From IMG/VR virus record IMGVR_UViG_2565956718_000004: 49,168 nt of DNA; one strand, 5' to 3'. The notes under the pieces were generated by a model. The model did not search any database, was not told the origin of the DNA, and saw nothing but the letters and a program-made list of their open reading frames with translations. This stretch comes from a virus (Duplodnaviria; Heunggongvirae; Uroviricota; Caudoviricetes). A program made the position numbers and the translations under genes. This document shows, piece by piece, positions 20,162 through 44,239 of this stretch (position 1 is its first letter; each line of letters starts with the position of its first letter).

Positions 20162-20527
20162 TTACAGTCCGATGATGTCGTCCTCTCTGCCACTACCTCC
20201 GGACACCTCCGGCAGCGTCGGGTCCGGCATACCACTCGCCGCTTCACGAGCAGACTTTTGTCGATGGCATTCGGCACAGAGCGTCCAAAGATTCGTCTCC
20301 TCATTACCACCACCGAACTGAAGTGCAATTCGGTGATCGAGTTCACTGTCACAGAGGTCAACCACACGACCACAGATACAGCACTGCCCGGCGTCCCTCA
20401 GCCAGATATGACGCTTGAGGGAAACACGTGCACTGCCACTGACACGACGCTGCTCCCCCTTCAGAATATTCACCCGTCGGGTATTCAGTGTTTTGATTCT
20501 GCTCTGGAGTGTACGAAGCTCAGCCAT
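20162..20527 (-). CDS. HNH endonuclease
   Basis: 121-aa ORF with CxxC...H..H...CxxCH zinc-finger/HNH motifs, adjacent to the terminase genes. Confidence 0.85.
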   Translation of the reverse strand: MAELRTLQSRIKTLNTRRVNILKGEQRRVSGSARVSLKRHIWLRDAGQCCICGRVVDLCDSELDHRIALQFGGGNEETNLWTLCAECHRQKSAREAASGMPDPTLPEVSGGSGREDDIIGL

Positions 20528-20568
20528 GTAAAATCCCCGTCATATGGCAATCAGTAAAGGAAATAAAT

Positions 20569-20769
20569 ATGTCATCGAAAAACCGGACCCGCAGAACCAC
20601 AACCCGCAATATCCGTTTCCCCAATCACATAATTGAACAGATCAACATCGCCCTTGAGCATAAAGGGTCCGGTAACTTTTCAGCGTGGGTTATTGAAGCC
20701 TGCAGGAGAAGGCTGGCAACAGATGCAACGCATCTGCGCCCGGCCAGCATGACAAATAACGAGAAATGA
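20569..20769 (+). CDS. ribbon-helix-helix (Arc/CopG-like) DNA-binding protein
   Basis: 66-aa ORF from ATG at 20569 with RBS AAAGG; basic N-terminal strand then helices. Confidence 0.5.
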   Translation: MSSKNRTRRTTTRNIRFPNHIIEQINIALEHKGSGNFSAWVIEACRRRLATDATHLRPASMTNNEK

Positions 20770-20967
20770 ACGTTCGGTTTCTTCCACCATCGCACCGGAC
20801 AGGCGACTATGAGGGGACAACGCCGCGCTCCGTTAACGCGGTAAACCCCGGTGTGTATCGTTTTTGATTATCCCCGCACACTCGCGCAGAGGAGTCTCCC
20901 TGTCGGGCTGCGGTCTCTGTTAATGCAGGAATACGGCGACAATACCGCGCATGGATAATAAGGTCGC

Positions 20968-21192
20968 TCAACACACTGGTTGTAATGCAGCGGATACCAT
21001 GCGGCATTTAGCGGCATTCATCGTACACTCCACGGTTAGCTCTTCATTCGTGGCATTCACCTGAAAGGTCCGGGAGTGTAATTGCGTACATTTACCACTG
21101 AACGAACCTTCAACAAGAACACGACCACGCTGCAAAATACGGAACGGAATTGTTCCCTGAAAAGGTTCTACGGTTACCCGTAATTTCTTCAT
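20968..21192 (-). CDS. hypothetical protein translationally coupled to Rz
   Basis: 74-aa ORF; its ATG overlaps the Rz stop (ATGA) and is preceded by RBS GGAGGA. Confidence 0.5.
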
Positions 21193-21683
21193 GTATCCTC
21201 CGGATAATAAAAAGCCAGCTTAGTGCACTGAGTGCGGATATATTCCTGCGCCCCTTCCAGCTGCTTCTGCATTGTCATCAACCGTTCTCTGAGGATGAAA
21301 TAATCCCGTTCAGCGGTGTCTGCCAGTCGGGGGCCGGTTGCATTATCCACGCCGGAGGTGCCGGTGGCTTCACGCACGGTACCGGAGCAGGTGGCGTTGA
21401 TCCGCAGGCGCTTACGACCAGCGGCAACATCAGCACGCAGAGTTTCATTTTCAGCTCTCGCATCGGCTAATTCCCTCGAGTATCTGGCATCAAGTTCAGC
21501 GACATCACGCTGGCGTATCTGCATATCAGTAATTGTCGCGTTCGCCAGTTTCAGCTCACTGACTTTTTTATCGCGCTGCGCTTTGTAGGTGATGGCGTTA
21601 TCGCGGTAATGATTCAGCCCCAGACTAAGCACACCACAGGCTACCAGCAGGACAATAATCACCACACACAGAACACGGTTCAT
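21189..21683 (-). CDS. Rz: i-spanin Rz
   Basis: Start at [10 protein letters not shown]; N-terminal TM then coiled-coil ([15 protein letters not shown]...) matching lambda Rz. Confidence 0.9.
21278..21463 (-). CDS. Rz1: o-spanin Rz1 lipoprotein (embedded in Rz, +1 frame)
   Basis: 61-aa ORF with lipobox LVVSAC and proline-rich [25 protein letters not shown] matching lambda Rz1. Confidence 0.8.
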
Positions 21684-21901
21684 ATCACCACCAACGGATT
21701 GCCCAGACCAGAACAGCAATGGCCACAATACGAATGGCAAATGCCATTGCCCGAATAAGTTCAGCACTCATCTTTTTAAAGTTCACGATTTCAGCGCAAT
21801 GACCAGTTTTGCCAGCCCATACAGCATCGGAGACACAGCAATACCAACAGCCACCCACTTAATAGCAAAAGCCAGCGCTCTGCTGATGTCATCAGTCACT
21901 G

Positions 21902-22033
21902 TCACCCCAGCAGCCCCGACGAAGACAACATCACCCAGGCGAGGGACAGAAAAAGAGCAACCAGCATTAGTGAAAATGAAATACCGACAATCACACACAG
22001 GACCTTTGCCGGCGTTATGAGTTTGTCTGACAT
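21902..22033 (-). CDS. small hydrophobic membrane peptide (43 aa)
   Basis: ATG at 22033-22031 with RBS AAGGGG 6 nt upstream; MSDKLITPAKVLCVIVGISFSLMLVALFLSLAWVMLSSSGLLG; below the track's 60-aa cutoff. Confidence 0.4.
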   Translation of the reverse strand: MSDKLITPAKVLCVIVGISFSLMLVALFLSLAWVMLSSSGLLG

Positions 22034-22202
22034 AGCTACCCCTTAATTGCCACAATTAACTGGGATACTACCCATAAAAAAGGGATGCTCCAGACCAGCA
22101 AAAATTTCCAGTTTGGTAATTGACTAATCATGAGTCGCAACTCCCTAATCAGTTTGCTAAAATCAATCAAGGCAGCCTCCCATAGCTTACTGCCATAAAA
22201 AC

Positions 22203-22240
22203 AAAACCCCGCTTGCTGCCAACAAACGGGGTTTTTACTT
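22203..22240. terminator. hairpin terminator between endolysin and the small ORF block
   Basis: AAACCCCG / CGGGGTTT stem with 15-nt loop, T-runs on both strands. Confidence 0.45.
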
Positions 22241-22325
22241 TTATTCACTTACATTTTGCCAGTTCGCAGGATTTCGTGTTATCCGTCCGCCTTGGCCAAC
22301 GTCATTTATTAGCAAAATATTCTGC

Positions 22326-22859
22326 TTATCTGTCGATTCCCCAGCACGCCAGCGCGCTCTCCTGGTCACGACGGGATACCTGACCGTAACAGTTATTTGA
22401 GCGAATACGGCAGTCCCTGCCACCGTCCTTAATCCACCAGCGAATCGCCTCACACGCTCCCCTGCGATCACCTGCATTAATTCGTTTATAAAACGTCGAC
22501 GGAAAACACTTACCGGGGCCAATGTTGTACGGACAGAATGACGCGATCCCCGCTTTCTGGGGTTCACTCAATGGCACTCTGATGTTTTTCTCCACCCATG
22601 CCAGCGCCTTATCACGCTCAATGGCGTTAACCCGGTCGCATTTTTCCTTCGACAACTTCATGCCCGGAACGACAGGTTTGCCATCCACCAGGATGGCACC
22701 GCGGCAGATGGTCCAGATACCCGCGCCATCACGGTATGCCGTGGTGTGGTTACCTTCCTTTTCATCCAGAAACTGGTCGAGAATGTCAGGCGCAGGCGCA
22801 CCAGCGGCAATCAGCGCCAGAACGGCAGCCGACAGGCCGTATCTGATTTTTGCGTTCAT
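22326..22859 (-). CDS. R: SAR endolysin (lysozyme, phage-21 R-like)
   Basis: 177-aa ORF; N-terminal signal-anchor-release segment MNAKIRYGLSAAVLALIAAGA then lysozyme-like catalytic region. Confidence 0.9.
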   Translation of the reverse strand: MNAKIRYGLSAAVLALIAAGAPAPDILDQFLDEKEGNHTTAYRDGAGIWTICRGAILVDGKPVVPGMKLSKEKCDRVNAIERDKALAWVEKNIRVPLSEPQKAGIASFCPYNIGPGKCFPSTFYKRINAGDRRGACEAIRWWIKDGGRDCRIRSNNCYGQVSRRDQESALACWGIDR

Positions 22860-22964
22860 GGATATTTATCAGGATTTATCGGTTTCTGAGCCCTGGATAT
22901 GTTTATCAGTTCCAGCCTGTTGCCTCAGGCTGCTAACAGGTCAATACAATCATGAGGATTATTT

Positions 22965-23237
22965 ATGGACAATAACACCATTTCTCTACAGGAGTTGCTC
23001 GACAGCATTTCCAGGCTTCGGGAAGACGTGAATACCCTTACCGTCGCCTTCTCATATCTGGCATTCTCAATTCCAAGGGAACAGATGCAATCAACGCTGG
23101 CATCAATCCAGTTTGAATCATGCAATCCCAAATGGTCTCAGGAACAACAAGACTCTTTCAGGCGGCTTGCTGTATTACTGGATGAAAAATATGCTGGTAA
23201 AATTACCATTTCGGCGGACTCTTCAGAGAACCAGTAA
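22965..23237 (+). CDS. hypothetical protein (plus-strand ORF inside the lysis cassette)
   Basis: 90-aa ORF with RBS GAGGA 6 nt upstream; 3' end overlaps the convergent 114-aa gene by 35 nt. Confidence 0.4.
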   Translation: MDNNTISLQELLDSISRLREDVNTLTVAFSYLAFSIPREQMQSTLASIQFESCNPKWSQEQQDSFRRLAVLLDEKYAGKITISADSSENQ

Positions 23238-23547
23238 TTATTCCCGGTAGTTTTCCTCTGTAGGTTATCAACACATCCTGCGCCTCTAAAATTACGGGGC
23301 GCTTTTCCGGCGACTGCTCATCCCCTTCACATAACCCGGCAGCAACATCCAGGAAGACCTGTCTGATGCTCCTTCTGGCTGCTGCCTCATAAAACTCCAG
23401 CGCGGCACCTTCAACACGGTCCAGCGAGATGTCCAGGTCAAAAATTTCACCGTCAAAGCGTTTTTTGTCCCGTAACGCTAAAGTTACCGTAACTTTATTC
23501 TCAAAATTGCGGATCCCTTTCACAATCAGTTCATAGTTTTGAGTCAT
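23203..23547 (-). CDS. hypothetical protein inserted between holin and endolysin
   Basis: 114-aa ORF starting 5 nt after the holin stop with RBS GGAGAG. Confidence 0.55.
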   Translation of the reverse strand: MTQNYELIVKGIRNFENKVTVTLALRDKKRFDGEIFDLDISLDRVEGAALEFYEAAARRSIRQVFLDVAAGLCEGDEQSPEKRPVILEAQDVLITYRGKLPGIITGSLKSPPKW

Positions 23548-23551
23548 TGAA

Positions 23552-23767
23552 TTACTCTCCCCGTGCCGCCTTACGACGGTCCTCTCTGATTTTGAAATAC
23601 AGGTTAGTCAGATATGTCAGCAGCCCAAACAGCAGACTCCCCAGCACGCCTATTGCCGCCCACTGAGACGGGGAAACCCTGTCCAGCAACTGCAGGAACC
23701 AGTAGCCCGTTCCCACCGCTGACGTGGTGTATGACACACCTGTTGTGATTTTTTCCATCTGGTACAT
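23552..23767 (-). CDS. S: pinholin S (phage 21 S21-like)
   Basis: 71-aa product from [10 protein letters not shown] (two Met starts 3 codons apart, as in S21); C-terminus ...[22 protein letters not shown] matches S21 from memory. Confidence 0.85.
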
Positions 23768-23917
23768 ACCCCGTCTCCCGTTATCCGGAAGCTGACAACA
23801 ATAAAAAAAGCCACCAGTTAAGTACTGATGGCTCTGATAACTCATGCAGGCATCTCAGACGACCCACTGACACTACCGGTGAGTTTAACGATACCTTCCA
23901 TTTGACTGGCTCACTTT

Positions 23918-25789
23918 TTATGATGATGCCGGTGCATTTATCTCCAGCACCAGGCTGCCGATATCGACGCCATACGCTGCATTTTTGGTAATATCCGTCA
24001 GCGTCAGCGCATTCAGCCCCAGTGTCAGACTGTCTTTTATGACCTGGAATGCCGGGCCAGCCACTCCATTCAGTTTCGGAGTAACCGTGGCACTGCCGGC
24101 GGTGAACACCAGCTCCAGCGTCTGCCAGTCGTTACTGTAATTCCCGAACTCGCCCAACTTTGTGTTTCCGGCTTTCTTGTGATGCATCAGATTCAGTTTG
24201 CCGTCTGTGGTCTGGGTGAAGAACGACATCAGGAACGGGTTACCAGTCCCGGTCATCGCCACGACGTCAGGTAACGCTACATCGGTATACAGATAAATTC
24301 CCAGACCGAACTGGTTGTTGGTCAGTGCGCCTGACAGTCGAAACTTACAGCTCAGTCTGCCACCCCGTGTCAGCAGGGAGACTGCGTCATCCACCGGATG
24401 CATCAGGGACCAGGTTTTATTGCTCTGCTTGGTAACCTTAAACACACCATCTTCCAGCGCAACACTGCCGCCGGTGATGGTCCAGCCCTGCGCAGCAGCC
24501 TCTCCGGCTGTCGGCAGCAGGGAGACTGTACGAACGGATGTGTCACCATCAGACGGCCCCGATGGCGTGTCGCCGCCGGGCGAGGGTTTAATCTCCGGTG
24601 CGGTACCGCTGATGAAGGCGCTGGTTCGACCAACTGCGTTCAGAATAGCGGTTGCCAGGCGATCCGAAATAATGCCCCTGCGCGCCCATGAACTGAAATG
24701 TGTCGGACGATTTGACGATACCCAATTACCATTACTACGGGATTGCGCGCCGTAATAACCTGCATCAGCAATATCCGGGTCTTCTGCCGGTAAGTTGGTG
24801 GGCGTGTTGTTGCCGTTACCGTCGGTCATGAACGGCACAAAGAAAACGTTGTCGCTCTCCCTGTTTTTGTACGCGCCGTAGACGGAGTCATACTGTGTGC
24901 CGTATGTGTTTTTCCAGTAATACGTCGTGTCGCCACAAATCCACGGTACAACTGCAGCACTGCCGCCATGGCACTGCGCGTTAAATCCGGAAAGGTCAGT
25001 ACGGAACTGCTTCAGCATGGCCGTGAACAGGTCCGGTTGCTGTGCGTAGGTGGCAGCGCTCATGTCAAATTCGCCCTGCATCCAGCACACCGCCAGCAAC
25101 ACATTTTTCGGGTTCTTCTGTAATGCCGCTTTGGTGCGTGCGATCAGGTCCTGATATAACGGTTTACCCACACCCCAGCGTGCCGAATCCTGGCTGGCCC
25201 CCGTGTCCGCACTGAATGTCCCCTCCGCGCCCTGGGTGAATGCCGAACCACCACGACAGCATGGTACCAGCAGGATCCCCGCGTTATTCGGGATATACGG
25301 AAGCAGTTTTTTGGCAATATGTAAGCCCTGGCCGACACAGCCGTACTGCCCTTTGCTCAGGTCTGCCTTCGGATGATTCAGTGCGCTCATATCCTGAACA
25401 TCATGCAGGCAGTGGTCTGCCGGAATGATGTCGTTAAATGCGCATGCTTTACCACCGGGAGTCACTGTGTTGCGACGGGCCAGTTGCTTAATGCGTGGGT
25501 GGGGCGCATCGTAAGAATCCGGAAGCGGAAGCCCTTCACCGTAAGCCATGGCATTGGATTGCCCGGCCAGTACGATGACGTAGTACCACTCCGGCTCAGT
25601 TGCACCACTGACGACCACATCACCTTCTGCTGCAATCGCCTGCATCAGGGTATAAGGGGTTATGGCCACCGGACTACCAAACGGCTGCCAGCCCTCTTTC
25701 AGTTTATGTGTCAGCTTTTCCGCAAGATCTGACGGCGACGCCGCCCTGACAACATCATAGTGTTTAAATGCCATGGTTCTTTCCACCAT
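23918..25789 (-). CDS. prophage sialate O-acetylesterase (NanS-p-like; DUF1737 N-domain, SGNH esterase core, C-terminal lectin-like domain)
   Basis: 623-aa ORF; N-terminus MAFKHYDVVRAASPSDLAEKL...; GQSN esterase motif; upstream of the holin as in Stx-type prophages. Confidence 0.75.
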   Translation of the reverse strand: MVERTMAFKHYDVVRAASPSDLAEKLTHKLKEGWQPFGSPVAITPYTLMQAIAAEGDVVVSGATEPEWYYVIVLAGQSNAMAYGEGLPLPDSYDAPHPRIKQLARRNTVTPGGKACAFNDIIPADHCLHDVQDMSALNHPKADLSKGQYGCVGQGLHIAKKLLPYIPNNAGILLVPCCRGGSAFTQGAEGTFSADTGASQDSARWGVGKPLYQDLIARTKAALQKNPKNVLLAVCWMQGEFDMSAATYAQQPDLFTAMLKQFRTDLSGFNAQCHGGSAAVVPWICGDTTYYWKNTYGTQYDSVYGAYKNRESDNVFFVPFMTDGNGNNTPTNLPAEDPDIADAGYYGAQSRSNGNWVSSNRPTHFSSWARRGIISDRLATAILNAVGRTSAFISGTAPEIKPSPGGDTPSGPSDGDTSVRTVSLLPTAGEAAAQGWTITGGSVALEDGVFKVTKQSNKTWSLMHPVDDAVSLLTRGGRLSCKFRLSGALTNNQFGLGIYLYTDVALPDVVAMTGTGNPFLMSFFTQTTDGKLNLMHHKKAGNTKLGEFGNYSNDWQTLELVFTAGSATVTPKLNGVAGPAFQVIKDSLTLGLNALTLTDITKNAAYGVDIGSLVLEINAPASS

Positions 25790-26034: not shown

Positions 26035-26370
26035 ATGAAGTGGATTGTGATTGATACAGTTATCCAGCCATCATGCGGAATATCTTTTTCAGTCATATGG
26101 AGTAAAATAAAATTAATAATCTGGTATCAATCGGATGCTTTCTTACCTCCTGAAAGTATATTTACACTGACTCACACAGGCATCATGCTCAATAACAAAG
26201 TGCTACCTGTAACCATTTACAACGTAGTACCATTCAATAAAACATTATGGAATTTAATCAAAAACAGCCAGGAATGCCCTACAAATACAGATAACGTATT
26301 GAATGAATGCTTTAATAACCGTTGCACTCTGCAAATATGTCCTTATGGGCTAAAACAACAAAGTCCATAA
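26035..26370 (+). CDS. hypothetical Cys-containing protein in an AT-rich block (moron candidate)
   Basis: 111-aa ORF with RBS AAGGA 7 nt upstream; low GC relative to flanks; opposite strand to the late operon. Confidence 0.4.
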
Positions 26371-26395: not shown

Positions 26396-26615
26396 CAATA
26401 TAAACAGCCCCTCCGGAGAGGGGCTGGAGAGTGGCGCTATGTGCCATTGCATGGTGCCGGGTGCCTCCCGGTGAATTCAGTACCAGCACCTGAATCCGCG
26501 ATTATCCCATATACCTACTCGCTGATTACCCCTCCGCACAGGGGGATTCACCATGCGAAATTTTTTAACAAACTTCCCGCCGGCCAGACAATAATCGCCA
26601 GCCTGAATTATGAGC
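26396..26615. repeat. structured repeat unit, copy 1 (candidate ncRNA element)
   Basis: Starts with hairpin AGCCCCTC-CGGA-GAGGGGCT; shares conserved blocks with copy 2 while paired stems flank unrelated loops. Confidence 0.6.
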
Positions 26616-26868
26616 AACGTGGCATTTTACGGGAAAACTGTTTTCTGCAGTAAAAAGGCCCGCCGGAGCGAGCCTGGAAGGATAGCGGTCATGTGATGCC
26701 GGTTTCCCGGTAACTCAGCATCGGTATCTGAGTCAACGTTTTCTCTACTGGGTCATTTCCGATACGTTCCGCCTTCCGGCAGACTTTCATCACGTCAGAA
26801 AATATAGCACCCTGAGTAACAGGACAGTACTCAGAATTCAGGAAACTGTGACACATCCTGCACAGAAA

Positions 26869-27083
26869 AGCCCCTCCGGAGAGGGGCTGAAGTATAGCCT
26901 AATTTCTGTCTGTCGCATGGTGCCAGGGGCCTCCCGGTAAATTCAGCCTGTCTACTGAATTTGCATGTTCTCTGGATCATACACTTTGCCAGATGCCCCG
27001 CCGCTGAGGGGGATTCACCATGCGATGTAATTTTTAACAAATTCTCCGGCAGCCAGACAATCATCAAGCTGTGGAATTGTGAG
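26869..27083. repeat. structured repeat unit, copy 2 (candidate ncRNA element)
   Basis: Same block structure as copy 1; on the minus strand the 5' hairpin is followed by TTTTCTGTG, i.e. terminator-like. Confidence 0.6.
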
Positions 27084-27316: not shown

Positions 27317-27393
27317 TGGACCGCCATCGGGGACTTGAACCCCGCGCAGCCAGCTTCGAAGGCTGGCGCTCTATCCCGATGAGCTAATGGCGG
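27317..27393 (-). tRNA. tRNA-Arg (anticodon UCG)
   Basis: 77-nt cloverleaf ending CCA: acceptor CCGCCAT/ATGGCGG, D-arm GCTC..GAGC, anticodon stem CCAGC/GCTGG with loop CTTCGAA, T-arm CGGGG-TTCAAGT-CCCCG. Confidence 0.8.
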
Positions 27394-27400
27394 TATGTGA

Positions 27401-27476
27401 TGGTGGCCCTTGCTGGATTTGAACCAGCGACCTGGCGATTATGAGTCGCTCGCTCTCACCACTGAGCTAAAGGGCC
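27401..27476 (-). tRNA. tRNA-Ile2 (anticodon CAU, lysidine type; ileX/ileZ-like)
   Basis: 76-nt sequence GGCCCTTTAGCTCAGTGGTGAGAGCGAGCGACTCATAATCGCCAGGTCGCTGGTTCAAATCCAGCAAGGGCCACCA, close to E. coli ileX. Confidence 0.85.
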
Positions 27477-29149: not shown

Positions 29150-29971
29150 CTATCGCGTTACCCTCTTTAACTGCCGCTCCGCCCATGCCTCTTCAATGTC
29201 AAACCGAACCACCAACGTATCGTAAAAGCGTTTCACTGATTTTTTCCACGTATCAAGCGTGATAGCACTCGTCACTTTGCATATGGCATTAAATGCCTCC
29301 GTTGATGGTAGTCTTTCACAGCCACGACCACCACAACGCTGGCAGTCTCTGATAACAGGCATACCACGTTTTACCGACTCTTCACGATGAATGGCGACAC
29401 CACGCCCACGGCAATCCTTACAGGCGGTGGAAATCTCCCCCTTCCCTTTACATTCAGGACAAGACACTTTCACCACCTCCCGATTTTTTTTCCATTCTTC
29501 CCAGTAAGACGGATACACACCTTTCGTACACTTTGCCCATACCGGCGGCTTACCATCCGGATACTGGACCTTGTTTGTAAAAACTACGCTTTCAATAAAT
29601 TTTTCCCCATAGCAACAAGGGCACTGCTTTTTACTCGCTGCGCTGCGGGCATAATCCTCAAAAGCGTACGAAGCCATAATGCGCATCACTACCGGTTTTA
29701 TTTCTGCCGGGAGTTTTCTTAACGCCGCCACGCGATCACACCGACTGAGTGCATATTCTGTCAGCAATTCTGTTGCCCGCTCTCTGTCATTCATACTAAT
29801 GCCCATTTTCCCAAGGAACGCAGAAAACCCCATCTCAGCCCGATTCTGTGTCATGCCCTGCGCGGCCATCACATCAGTGATACTCAGCGCATCTTTCGAC
29901 GTTGAGGCCGATGCATCAGTCAGGCCGGGGGATTTTGGGGAGTAGTATTTCGGTAAATCTTCCAGTTTCAT
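29150..29971 (-). CDS. antitermination protein Q-like, with DnaJ-type CxxCxGxG zinc-finger repeats
   Basis: 273-aa ORF after rusA; CPECKGKGE, CKDCRGRGV, CQRCGGRGC repeats; followed by the promoter/terminator unit. Confidence 0.55.
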   Translation of the reverse strand: MKLEDLPKYYSPKSPGLTDASASTSKDALSITDVMAAQGMTQNRAEMGFSAFLGKMGISMNDRERATELLTEYALSRCDRVAALRKLPAEIKPVVMRIMASYAFEDYARSAASKKQCPCCYGEKFIESVVFTNKVQYPDGKPPVWAKCTKGVYPSYWEEWKKNREVVKVSCPECKGKGEISTACKDCRGRGVAIHREESVKRGMPVIRDCQRCGGRGCERLPSTEAFNAICKVTSAITLDTWKKSVKRFYDTLVVRFDIEEAWAERQLKRVTR

Positions 29972-31851: not shown

Positions 31852-32007
31852 TTACTCCTCAGGTTCGTAAGCTGTGAAGACAGCGACCTCCGTCTGGCCG
31901 GTTCGGATTCGTACCTCGCAGAGGTCTTTCCTCGTTACCAGTGCCGTCACTATGACGGTTAAACAGATGACGATCAGGGCGATTAACATCGCCTTTTGCT
32001 GCTTCAT
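31852..32007 (-). CDS. hok: Hok/Gef family type I toxin
   Basis: 51-aa MKQQKAMLIALIVICLTVIVTALVTRKDLCEVRIRTGQTEVAVFTAYEPEE, the classic Hok sequence pattern. Confidence 0.85.
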   Translation of the reverse strand: MKQQKAMLIALIVICLTVIVTALVTRKDLCEVRIRTGQTEVAVFTAYEPEE

Positions 32008-32160
32008 AGCCTGCTTCTCCTTGACCTTTCGGTCCGTAAGAGGCTAATCTCTATGTGTCGCATAGATATGGCCTCAGATTAATGTTAAGCGTCTTGCAGG
32101 ACGCGTAATGTTAACTGGGGCTTTTCTCTATCTGCCTTTTGGTGTTCATGCCTGAGACAG
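32008..32160. other. hok mRNA leader / expected mok-sok regulatory region
   Basis: Structured region immediately upstream of hok where hok/sok loci carry the overlapping mok frame and antisense Sok RNA; exact sok ends not resolved. Confidence 0.4.
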
Positions 32161-32265
32161 ATAGCCTCAAGCACCCGCAGTCATTCTACTTAACTAAGAT
32201 TTCCCCGCAAACCGTTTTTGTCCGGCACAGTAAATATCCAACTAAACCAATGGCGTTCGCTGTAT

Positions 32266-43366: not shown

Positions 43367-44239
43367 TTCACCCTCCTGAGGGTTGGTGATTAAGGAGTTC
43401 TCCACGGGTGAGGTGGAGTGCGTGCGCCGGACACGGGTGAGCATCCGGCACTGACAGTTTACTGAAAGGATATTTCCCTGAAAAGTCAGACCATAACGCG
43501 AAAGCGCTCGGTGAGGTAGCTGGTTCATAGATAGCCTGTCGTTAAATTTTCGTCGACCGTGCGCTTCCGGTTGTGGCAATCCGCGAAATGGCGCGGCGGT
43601 AAGTATGGCGGGGTTATTCCTTCCCCCGTTGAGGACACCGGGTTGTCAGGTTGACCATACGCTTAAGTGACAACTCCGCTGCAACGCCCTCTGTTATCAA
43701 TTTTCTGGTGACTTTTGGCGGTATCAGTTCTACTCCGTGACTGCTCTGCCGCCCTTTTTAAAGTGAATTTTGTGATGCGGTGAATGCGGCTCAGCGCACG
43801 CGGAACAGTTAAAACAAGCGGTCTTTTACGGGCGTAACGGGAATGCTCTGTATCCGACGTTAATTGTTAACTGGTTAACGTCACCTGGAGGCACCAGGCA
43901 CCGCATCAACAAAGTTCACTTCGGTGATGAAAGGTAGAGAAAATGTTGAATGTAGCTATTGAAAACCAGAACGGGTGGAATTATAGTGCACCTGCACCTC
44001 ATAAAACGGGTGCCGGGCGTGGAAACCCGAAATCATTCACGGCGCATAACCGCGCTCAGGCGGTTTTTTTATGCGTTAAGCACAGCCACATTCGCATTAT
44101 GGTGGGGCGTGCAGGGCAGCCGCAAGGCTGGCCGGGTTCCGTGATGACCGGTATTTCCACCCCTGTACGTCTCACCACCCTTATGGTCGTGGAAAACCTC
44201 GGTGGTGAGTTAATCAAATTCATCGCGGAGGCTGCCATC

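Follow-up and report, generated by a model that had tools for sequence, protein, structure and literature searches.

A terminator and a compact array of microprotein genes between the endolysin and Rz genes of lambdoid prophages

Introduction

Several described systems resemble in part the small genes reported here. The P21-type holin/antiholin (S21 pinholin, PF04971) is a small inner-membrane protein of the lysis cassette that is expressed late, as the products discussed below would be. In phage Mu, the releasin gp25 (DUF2730) is membrane-tethered, is encoded near the endolysin and spanin genes and assists the SAR endolysin; it has 99 aa, including a cytoplasmic domain of 73 aa (PMC9239132). 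Lambdoid morons (Juhala et al. 2000, as related in PMC4104026) such as bor, lom and HK97 gp15 are extra DNA, variably present between genes that are direct neighbours in related phages, and small membrane proteins are common among their products. The hokD/sok pair encodes a peptide of similar size and hydrophobicity to those described here. A direct relative of one of the genes is XECs191/ECs_5707 of O157:H7 Sakai, which is located directly before Rz (Hücker et al. 2017, PMC5597208).

The window analysed here, a stretch of 49,168 nucleotides from a tailed-phage record, carries four mini-ORFs of 28-43 aa between its endolysin and Rz genes. They differ from the pinholin in having one helix instead of two, in lying after and not before the endolysin gene, and in being dispensable. 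Unlike gp25, they are without DUF2730 or any other Pfam match. A moron is a single promoter-gene-terminator unit, whereas in the insert several microgenes stand in a shuffled tandem arrangement, with no promoter detected. Finally, hok is transcribed as a unit of its own and its antisense RNA can be detected; neither was found for the block. No paper on these ORFs was found in the literature on R-Rz intergenic genes and small lysis-cassette proteins.

Results

The interval between R and Rz

The upstream edge of the slot is formed by the endolysin gene R (22326-22859, minus strand; 177 aa; PF00959, E=1e-23), named lysozyme/rrrQ by PGAP. Its N-terminus, GLSAAVLALIAAGAPAP, is Gly/Ala-rich and weakly hydrophobic, as read from the sequence itself, and R is a P21-type SAR endolysin. 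The downstream edge is the i-spanin gene Rz (21189-21683, minus strand; PF03245, E=2e-49), with the o-spanin gene Rz1 embedded in it (21278-21463, minus strand; PF06085, E=2e-21). The gene Q (PF03589) is found upstream at 29150-29971, in the same operon orientation as R-Rz, and a P21-type holin is present too.

Between the stop of R at 22326 and the ATG of Rz at 21683 there are 642 nt, in agreement with the spacing of about 640 bp given in the original prediction, and every element that it had listed in the insert was found at its coordinates. The slot contains about 85 nt of conserved 3'UTR, a strong two-way intrinsic terminator and four tightly packed mini-ORFs. The GC content of the array is 0.42-0.50, slightly below that of R and Rz (0.51-0.59). 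The R-Rz interval is thus a terminator followed by a compact microprotein gene array, and not a spacer. In the Qin prophage of K-12 the slot is empty and R and Rz (rrrQ/rzpQ) overlap with nothing between them, which indicates that the block is dispensable.

The 3'UTR, the terminator and the leader

The conserved 3'UTR of R (22241-22325, minus strand) was defined from an alignment of 30 distinct versions and their consensus fold. Besides two hairpins, one 5' and one central, it has a patch of some 14 nt that is hypervariable (about 22290-22303), and it holds 23 of the 36 variable sites found among copies of the window type. Two readings of this region were rejected. A covarying helix between two hypervariable patches was paired in 68% of cells, against 98% for the other helices, and shuffled sequences matched the observed value; a 24-codon ORF across the patch is interrupted by a stop in some versions.

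The intrinsic terminator occupies 22193-22240 on the minus strand. Its stem of 15 pairs, six of them G-C, was located by a consensus scan at 22235-22203 and is followed by GTTTTTATGG with a T-tail, so that the hairpin predicted at 22203-22240 is borne out with its stem at 22203-22235. Since the hairpin is flanked on each side by an A-run and a T-run, termination is possible in both directions, and in one related locus (L006) the terminator was scored on the opposite strand. Across the 30 versions 98.5% of cells in the stem are paired, the fold of 22120-22330 as minus-strand RNA has a z-score of -3.9, and at least three different stem sequences are found at the terminator position in other cassettes. 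The leader between terminator and ORF1 (22132-22192, minus strand) holds a Shine-Dalgarno (SD) sequence, AGGGAG, at 22141-22146, and the context upstream of ORF1 is kept in 206 of 210 copies.

No Rfam match with E<=1 was found over 20500-24500, and a gathering-threshold scan of the whole window returned none in the interval; the same Rfam search detected the hokD/sok pair at 31852-32176. The 64 Hfq-CRAC orphan peaks reported by Tree et al. all lie outside the R-Rz intervals of Sakai. The sRNAs AsxR, AgvB and Pas were considered and discarded as candidates: they are located between the esterase gene and the holin gene, not between R and Rz, and the window lacks the motif conserved among them. 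The two candidate peaks that were checked, EcOnc51 and EcOnc52, also fall in the esterase-holin gap.

The four mini-ORFs

ORF1 (22036-22131, minus strand) encodes 31 aa, MISQLPNWKFLLVWSIPFLWVVSQLIVAIKG, starts with ATG with AGGGAG 9 nt upstream, and matches phrog_6632 (E=1e-12). Its variable columns are distributed over the three codon positions as 7/5/16, and dN/dS (n=7) rises from 0.09 in frame to 0.82 and 2.29 when the frame is shifted. Copies of ORF1 broken by a stop occur.

ORF2 (21902-22033, minus strand) encodes 43 aa, MSDKLITPAKVLCVIVGISFSLMLVALFLSLAWVMLSSSGLLG (WP_001280935.1), the most hydrophobic of the four. Its ATG lies 2 nt past the stop of ORF1, with AAGGGG (22039-22044) 5 nt upstream. 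The original prediction had singled out this ORF together with its RBS, and it is present as claimed, with a match to phrog_4906 (E=5e-21; 4.5e-21 over residues 1-43) and under in-frame purifying selection: dN/dS is 0.30, against 0.85 and 1.73 in the shifted frames (n=47). There are 103 clusters of homologues with 62-98% identity, mostly of 43 aa, and all of the named ones are from E. coli; the length stays at 43-44 aa down to 62% identity, and the ATG is preceded by an SD in five different upstream contexts. The relative XECs191/ECs_5707 has the ORF2 core ISDKLITL..GISF..MLVA..W..L..SGL.G and is about 70% identical, but has 48-49 aa with an N-terminal extension, MGWLM, and lies behind an antirepressor gene, not behind ORF1.

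ORF3 (21783-21905, minus strand; about 38-40 aa, VTVTDDISRALAFAIKWVAVGIAVSPMLYGLAKLVIALKS; WP_042004856.1) matches phrog_3246 (E=4e-59), phrog_1115 (E=7e-24) and phrog_4493, the three together ranging from 4e-59 to 3e-16. The copy in the window is an N-terminally truncated member of a 48-aa family. The family N-terminus MKNGLELKAP, of the pattern MKNGLExxAPVT and with its own SD and ATG, is absent; the window copy begins with ..VTVTDD.. behind ORF2 and has only GTG or CTG starts available, namely GTG at 21905 (a GTGA overlap with the ORF2 stop), GTG at 21899 or the CTG at 21938 chosen by PGAP. Its start is therefore uncertain. The further hydrophobic ORF that had been proposed in the C-terminal part of 21783-22055 is a real gene, with a truncated N-terminus and no certain start. 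Phage ON470626 has an annotated version of 38 aa. Full-length copies (n=34) have a dN/dS of 0.16, against 0.65 and 13.9 in the shifted frames, and in family copies, as in those of ORF2, the ATG and an SD 5-7 nt before it persist across several unrelated upstream contexts. The family is found in E. coli, E. marmotae and Salmonella, and its soluble N-terminal motif, MKNGLExDAPVTxEIS, is kept even in very distant relatives. Only 14 representative clusters out of 1.84 billion passed E<=0.001 in an exhaustive profile search with the family, which is narrow and showed no connection to any larger one. One distant relative lies between the tail genes I and J.

ORF4 (21685-21771, minus strand; 28 aa; WP_032140280.1; phrog_4493, E=4e-6) is the mini-ORF that had been noticed just before Rz. 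It is a paralogue of the ORF3 core with a different short N-terminus: both ORFs have the core AFAI(K/R)..VA....L and the hydrophobic helix of the 48-aa family, whose pattern is MKNGLE..AFAIKWVAVG..LYG..KS, and ORF3/ORF4 chimeras are found in nature. ORF4 has no SD and its stop is 1 nt ahead of the ATG of Rz, whose own SD (GGTGGTGA) is within the last ORF4 codons. The dN/dS of ORF4 is 0.27 on copies of modal length, against 0.95 and 2.13 in the shifted frames (n=14); the value of 0.57 obtained with an indel copy included is an artefact.

Selection and translation

All four mini-ORFs are protein-coding and under purifying selection. Their in-frame dN/dS values of 0.09-0.30, which are pooled pairwise counts and not phylogenetically independent, stand against 0.65-13.9 in the shifted sense frames; they are comparable with those of the flanking genes at the same loci, 0.11 (R) and 0.39 (Rz), and the codon-aligned antisense frame gives 0.29-0.57. 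The first scan of viral contigs returned almost only window-identical copies, with 36 of 643 columns variable, too few for selection tests, which needed four more scans seeded with divergent members. Synonymous-site-blind drift, which the original prediction had named as evidence against these ORFs, was not seen.

Each of ORF1-4 belongs to a PHROG family, all of unknown function. RefSeq/PGAP annotates ORF2, ORF3 and ORF4 as hypothetical proteins and leaves ORF1 unannotated. The original prediction had overlooked that three of the four ORFs were already in RefSeq and that the block is one arrangement of a shuffled array. Its description of the products as small hydrophobic membrane peptides holds: each has one hydrophobic stretch, a single helix, with a GRAVY of 1.1-1.6 and frame-specific selection. 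Holin traits were not found in them; there is no Pfam match, no second TM domain, and the C-termini of 0-8 residues have no charged tail. No similarity to holin, antiholin, releasin, spanin or defence families was found for any of the mini-ORFs or related peptides in Pfam, NCBIfam or PADLOC. The ORF3 helix, WVAVG..S....G, is loosely like the second transmembrane domain (TMD2) of the pinholin, and a natural holin-ORF3 chimera exists. Derivation of ORF3 from TMD2 is no more than a lead: hhalign of the window holin against the ORF3 family gave a non-significant probability of 1.7%.

A lack of ribosome occupancy had also been named as evidence against these ORFs, and published RIBOseq data exist for the ORF2-family member of O157 Sakai. 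In LB, XECs191 had a translatome RPKM of 12.6, an RCV of 0.43 and a coverage of 0.55, passing the thresholds, and the product was predicted to be an inner-membrane protein with one TM domain; the cultures were uninduced, and both the RNAseq and the RIBOseq signals were weak (PMC5597208). Expression from the prophage state and spontaneous induction would account equally well for such a signal.

Distribution of the gene families

In about 400 related loci, the families of ORF1-4 and a fifth family were found in shuffled orders (1-2-3-4, 3-2, 2, 3-4 and 3-5-4). In about 257 loci they always lie between an endolysin gene, of any of three enzyme types, and the spanin region, usually behind a terminator. 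With T for the terminator and Ant for an antirepressor gene, the arrangements include R-T-1-2-3-4-Rz, R-T-3-2-Rz, GH108-T-3-2, R-2-Rz, R-T-3-4-Rz and R-Ant-1-2-3-4-Rz, and the order in Sakai Sp5 is R-Ant-ORF2-Rz. An identical Salmonella ORF3 protein is encoded directly before Rz behind Phage_lysozyme, GH19 or antirepressor genes. The genes come from a limited set of microprotein families, at least five in number, which are shuffled among the lambdoid prophages of Escherichia and Salmonella under purifying selection, and the slot between endolysin and Rz/Rz1 is recombination-prone.

Parts of the block were present in 2186 of 5426 complete E. coli genomes, with up to 14 copies per genome, and some array copies carry stop codons or frameshifts. 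Relatives of ORF2 were found in 276 phage records, mostly of Stx1- and Stx2-converting phages, and the majority of these copies are unannotated. In Stx-type phages the unrelated antirepressor gene occupies the slot too, so position alone does not prove a role in lysis.

Discussion

No sense-strand promoter-like site was found in 21400-23400. With no promoter of its own and the terminator ahead of it, the array would be transcribed late and in dependence on Q, essentially only by Q-modified, terminator-resistant RNA polymerase and together with S, R and Rz. Translation would be driven by the SD sequences and by coupled initiation, which is suggested by the 2 nt between the ORF1 stop and the ORF2 ATG, the overlap of the ORF2 stop with the ORF3 GTG, and the single nucleotide between the ORF4 stop and the Rz ATG. 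On this arrangement we consider late co-transcription with SD-driven and coupled translation probable.

The likeliest role of the products, to which we tentatively give a probability of about 40%, is that of late-expressed accessory membrane microproteins which modulate lysis. The peptides would sit in the inner membrane as dispensable accessory lysis factors, and helix-helix contacts with membrane-embedded lysis proteins could tune the timing or the completeness of the envelope breach. Candidate partners are TMD2 of the pinholin, the SAR anchor of R and the N-terminal helix of Rz. If the peptides do tune lysis, they would form a new regulatory layer in lysis by pinholin, SAR endolysin and spanin, and a determinant of the timing of Stx release.

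The main rival is that the array is moron-type cargo in a permissive slot of the late operon, at least partly expressed from the prophage and serving the lysogen or opposing other phages: it might exclude superinfecting phages at the inner membrane, as HK97 gp15 does, or disturb the proteins that competing prophages use for lysis or entry. We regard this as rather unlikely but as a serious explanation. The slot is empty in Qin and taken by the unrelated antirepressor gene in Stx-type phages; the presence, order and copy number of the genes vary highly, up to the 14 copies of interval parts in one genome, and natural chimeras occur, as is typical of accessory or arms-race genes. A relative of ORF3 in the tail-gene region, the slightly lower GC content of the array and the RNAseq and RIBOseq signal of XECs191 in uninduced LB culture point the same way. 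However, that signal is weak and could be explained by spontaneously induced cells or by reads shared between prophage copies, and no Hfq-bound or orphan transcript has been reported from the uninduced Sakai R-Rz intervals. The layout also differs from that of a moron, as no sense-strand promoter-like site was found before the array, the terminator is upstream of the genes where classical morons have theirs downstream, and the array is translationally coupled into Rz. PADLOC gave no match. If the peptides were nevertheless exclusion or competition factors, they would add a microprotein effector family to prophage-prophage conflict.

The block could also work mainly at the RNA level, delivering ribosomes to Rz or setting the dosage of Rz/Rz1, with the peptide sequence unimportant. 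The ORF4 stop 1 nt from the Rz ATG, the Rz SD inside ORF4, the last mini-gene of other arrangements that abuts Rz likewise, and the conserved terminator and flanking hairpins all fit this. It is nevertheless very improbable, because selection acts at the amino-acid level in all families, soluble N-terminal motifs are kept in very distant relatives, and Qin-type cassettes express Rz without such a leader. The suggestion in the original prediction that the peptides could be type I toxins, here depolarising peptides checked by an antisense RNA that starts within the array and ends at the two-way terminator, was not supported and is highly improbable. The peptides do have the size and hydrophobicity of Hok, Ldr, TisB and Zor, there is a plus-strand T-run at the terminator, and a plus-strand promoter-like site at 22027-22056 faces it, with a different such site in L006. 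These hits are however at the level of chance (2 against 1.7 expected, and 1 against 0.9 expected), they are not at homologous positions, a further locus (L090) has none, and the -35 of the hit in the window is forced by the start codons of ORF2. The plus-strand RNA does not fold unusually well (z = -1.6), no Rfam RNA was found, and the genes are coupled in tandem within a late operon, with neither an own promoter nor a long structured 5'UTR. Least probable of all is that these are functionless chance ORFs or decaying remnants. Some copies are pseudogenised, ORF3 in the window is 5'-truncated and ORF4 has no SD, but selection is frame-specific on all four, starts, stops and lengths are kept, the families occur in two genera and thousands of genomes, and RIBOseq supports translation; for ORF1 and ORF2 this explanation is contradicted.

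A further possibility is that the slot is a combinatorial microprotein array whose helices mimic or dock on the TM helices of lysis proteins, such as TMD2 of the pinholin. We consider this quite unlikely. Shuffling would then proceed by recombination, either where genes meet or inside the AFAI(K/R) and WVA(V/I)G motifs that they share. Each prophage could in this way have lysis timed to its own setting, or could block the holins of lambdoid phages that share or superinfect its host, or hijack them, and in Stx phages the timing of toxin release would be set too.

These microgenes are very common, and the lysis cassette that houses them is of the best-studied kind among phages. Plaque-forming relatives with the block include PhiR5_1, the PhiR12 series and vB_EcoS-783R2, and natural variants carry one, two or four of the genes.

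Mini-genes in the endolysin-Rz interval

The lysis cassette of this lambdoid prophage is on the minus strand and comprises, in this order, the genes for the Q antiterminator (29150-29971; PF03589), a SASA/DUF6645 esterase (23918-25789), a P21-type holin S (23552-23767; PF04971), YdfR/DUF1327 (23203-23547), the endolysin R (22326-22859; PF00959), whose N-terminal segment is Gly/Ala-rich and SAR-like, and Rz (21189-21683; PF03245) with Rz1 embedded in it (21278-21463; PF06085). R and Rz are separated by 642 nt, in which an 85-nt structured 3'UTR of R is followed by a 15-pair intrinsic terminator hairpin with T-runs on both strands (22235-22203, minus) and then by four minus-strand mini-ORFs. ORF1 (31 aa, 22131-22036; SD AGGGAG) is preceded by a 61-nt leader, and the ATG of ORF2 (43 aa, 22033-21902; SD AAGGGG) lies 2 nt past its stop. 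The GTG of ORF3 at 21905 overlaps the ORF2 stop as GTGA, and the frame runs to 21783; the N-terminus and start typical of its family are absent in the window, and its translation may depend on reinitiation at this GTG. ORF4 (28 aa, 21771-21685) has no SD and stops 1 nt ahead of the Rz ATG. All four products carry a single hydrophobic stretch (GRAVY 1.1-1.6). The original prediction, of tiny hydrophobic ORFs and a terminator between endolysin and Rz, was borne out in every element.

The mini-gene block is real and not an artefact, and proved to be more widely distributed and better organised than could be read from the sequence alone. RefSeq and PHROGs already contain its sequences, and translation of one family has published support. 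ORF2 (WP_001280935.1), ORF3 (WP_042004856.1) and ORF4 (WP_032140280.1) are RefSeq/PGAP hypothetical proteins and ORF1 is without annotation there; ORF2 and a 38-aa ORF3 are annotated in phage vB_EcoS-783R2, and all four mini-ORFs match PHROG families of unknown function. No Pfam, NCBIfam, PADLOC or Rfam match was found for the mini-ORFs or the interval. At least 13 complete E. coli genomes carry the 1.9-kb R-to-Rz segment at 100% identity.

Coding selection and translation

About 400 related loci were gathered from IMG/VR, complete E. coli genomes and Salmonella assemblies, and Nei-Gojobori dN/dS was calculated on the distinct DNA sequences of each family, with two shifted sense frames as controls. 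Pooled without regard to phylogeny or recombination, in-frame dN/dS was 0.09 for ORF1 (shifted frames 0.82 and 2.29; n=7), 0.30 for ORF2 (0.85 and 1.73; n=47), 0.16 for ORF3 (0.65 and 13.9; n=34), 0.27 for ORF4 (0.95 and 2.13; n=14) and 0.06 for ORF5, a fifth family not present in the window (3.05 and 2.04; n=6); R and Rz from the same loci gave 0.11 and 0.39. Variable columns cluster at third codon positions. The codon-aligned antisense frame, which is open for ORF2, also gave lowish values (0.29-0.57), an expected artefact of shared third positions, and the ORF2 antisense ORF would be lost in rearrangements between architectures. The ORF2 and ORF3 families retain an ATG start preceded at 5-7 nt by an SD, irrespective of which gene comes before, and ORF2 stays at 43-44 codons even at 62% identity.

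In O157 Sakai, 465 intergenic ORFs passed RIBOseq thresholds, one of them the ORF2-family member XECs191 (MMGWLMISDKLITLVKSLCVLVGISFLVMLVAIFFSTAWRVLTLSGLVG) from prophage Sp10, with RPKM values in LB of 30.0 (transcriptome) and 12.6 (translatome), an RCV of 0.43 and a coverage of 0.55; an inner-membrane location and one TM helix are predicted for its product (Hücker et al. 2017, PMC5597208). Current annotation has this protein as ECs_5707 of the Stx2 prophage Sp5, where its gene lies between an antirepressor gene and Rz. The mini-ORFs are real microprotein genes under selection, and the ORF2 family is translated.

Distribution and shuffling

The mini-genes stand out because most sequenced Stx phages carry them and because they are shuffled like cassettes. 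Parts of the interval are present in 2186 of 5426 complete E. coli genomes, in up to 14 places per genome. The ORF2 family (103 clusters) was found in E. coli and its phages only, including 276 phage records, mostly Stx-converting and mostly lacking its annotation. The ORF3 family is narrow (14 representative clusters among 1.84 billion proteins) and reaches E. marmotae and Salmonella, where one identical protein is encoded immediately before Rz, the gene in front of it being a Phage_lysozyme, a GH19 endolysin or a P22-type antirepressor gene. The families keep to the endolysin-spanin slot with different types of endolysin and in two genera; the single exception is a distant ORF3 relative from Salmonella salamae (52 aa; 4 residues are inserted in its helix), located between lambda-like tail genes I and J, outside any lysis cassette.

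When about 257 loci were sorted by order of elements (T, terminator; Ant, antirepressor gene; numbers, mini-ORF families), the arrangement of the window, R-T-1-2-3-4-Rz, was seen in 66 or more, R-T-3-2-Rz in 56, GH108 endolysin-T-3-2-lipoprotein in 40, R-2-Rz in 18 and R-3-2-Rz in 14, while R-Ant-1-2-3-4-Rz, R-T-3-Rz, R-T-3-4-Rz, R-T-3-5-4-Rz, R-T-1b-Rz and others had few loci each. In K-12 Qin, whose cassette is likewise holin-YdfR-R-Rz, R overlaps Rz and the slot is empty. Some mini-ORF copies are disrupted by stop codons or frameshifts. ORF3 and ORF4 are paralogues, and natural chimeras join the N-terminus of either to the C-terminus of the other; in a third, a WVA(I/V)G motif common to both is the junction between the P21-type holin N-terminus (TMD1) and the C-terminal helix of ORF3. 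Of the chimera set (P0217, P0212/P0222 and P0219), P0219 was found on just one contig, of 554 nt, and may result from misassembly.

In GH108-endolysin cassettes (L089, NZ_CP091018.1, locus 1561-1743, and 40 or more viral loci), a predicted lipoprotein of 60 aa is encoded after the ORF3-ORF2 pair, with lipobox FFLVGC and three Cys within its 30-aa mature part. It stands in place of a recognisable Rz, comes after Rz in two loci, and might resemble an o-spanin or serve in exclusion.

Terminator and transcription

The hairpin is kept across 30 distinct versions (98.5% of cells paired), and in other cassettes, including GH108 and antirepressor types, its position is occupied by stems of different sequence, which argues that termination or hairpin function itself is maintained. 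An A-run and a T-run flank the hairpin symmetrically, one on each side, and in one relative it is scored on the antisense strand by the terminator scan. A promoter scan found no promoter-like site on the sense strand past the hairpin; therefore the mini-genes, Rz/Rz1 and everything downstream rely on read-through. Terminator read-through is established behaviour of Q-modified polymerase in lambda late operons, and this particular terminator would presumably be bypassed in the same way.

Ahead of the hairpin, the R 3'UTR has two small conserved hairpins and a hypervariable patch of ~14 nt (~22290-22303); of the 36 variable sites in the window-type set, 23 lie no more than 90 nt past the R stop. 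This patch and a second one (~22252-22260) interrupt the otherwise highly conserved 127-nt 3'UTR-plus-terminator. Considered as a helix or a conserved ORF, they gave no supported helix and the ORF was not conserved. Variation just ahead of a conserved scaffold that bears a terminator is reminiscent of sRNA seed variation; no expression evidence was found.

Possible functions

Small membrane proteins in lysis cassettes or moron slots are a known kind, of which the mini-ORFs are new, uncharacterised members. The array is membrane-directed, on the late-operon strand, without a detectable promoter and coupled to Rz. The peptides would be made late and act on the lysis machinery in the inner membrane, and we tentatively regard them as lysis modulators (probability about 0.4). 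Moron, exclusion or competition cargo expressed from the prophage is a possible but less probable explanation, and is favoured by the dispensability of the mini-ORFs, their hypervariable combinations, the antirepressor gene found in the same slot and the RIBOseq signal in uninduced culture.

A purely coupling or RNA role is improbable, being at odds with the selection at the amino-acid level. Type I toxins, as suggested in the original prediction, are less probable again, as two defining features of such loci fail here. The window has a genuine type I pair, hokD (51 aa) with sok RNA (31852-32176, minus; Rfam RF01794, 106.7 bits), which served as a positive control for the look of such a locus. 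That the mini-ORFs are junk is the least probable explanation and is contradicted for ORF1 and ORF2.

Other features of the prophage

Right after Rz, a 74-aa ORF (20968-21192, minus) matches only positions 100-172 of 291 in the phrog_2571 profile and looks like a fragment of a longer gene. Between ydfR and R, a 90-aa ORF on the opposite strand (22965-23237, plus) overlaps the ydfR 3' end, matches phrog_2411 over its full length (E=9e-59; PGAP, hypothetical protein) and looks like an antisense-oriented insert within the late operon. A 108-codon frame, +1 relative to R, spans the R 3' half into the 3'UTR (22241-22567, minus) and is probably open by chance, because a stop interrupts its tail in some relatives. 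Elsewhere, an Rfam scan at gathering thresholds detected two STnc100 copies, DicF, isrK, C4 antisense RNA and two tRNAs (26396-26584 and 26860-27053, minus; 43703-43754, 43994-44070 and 44095-44182, plus; 27320-27476, minus), and an iraM gene lies at 26035-26370 (plus).
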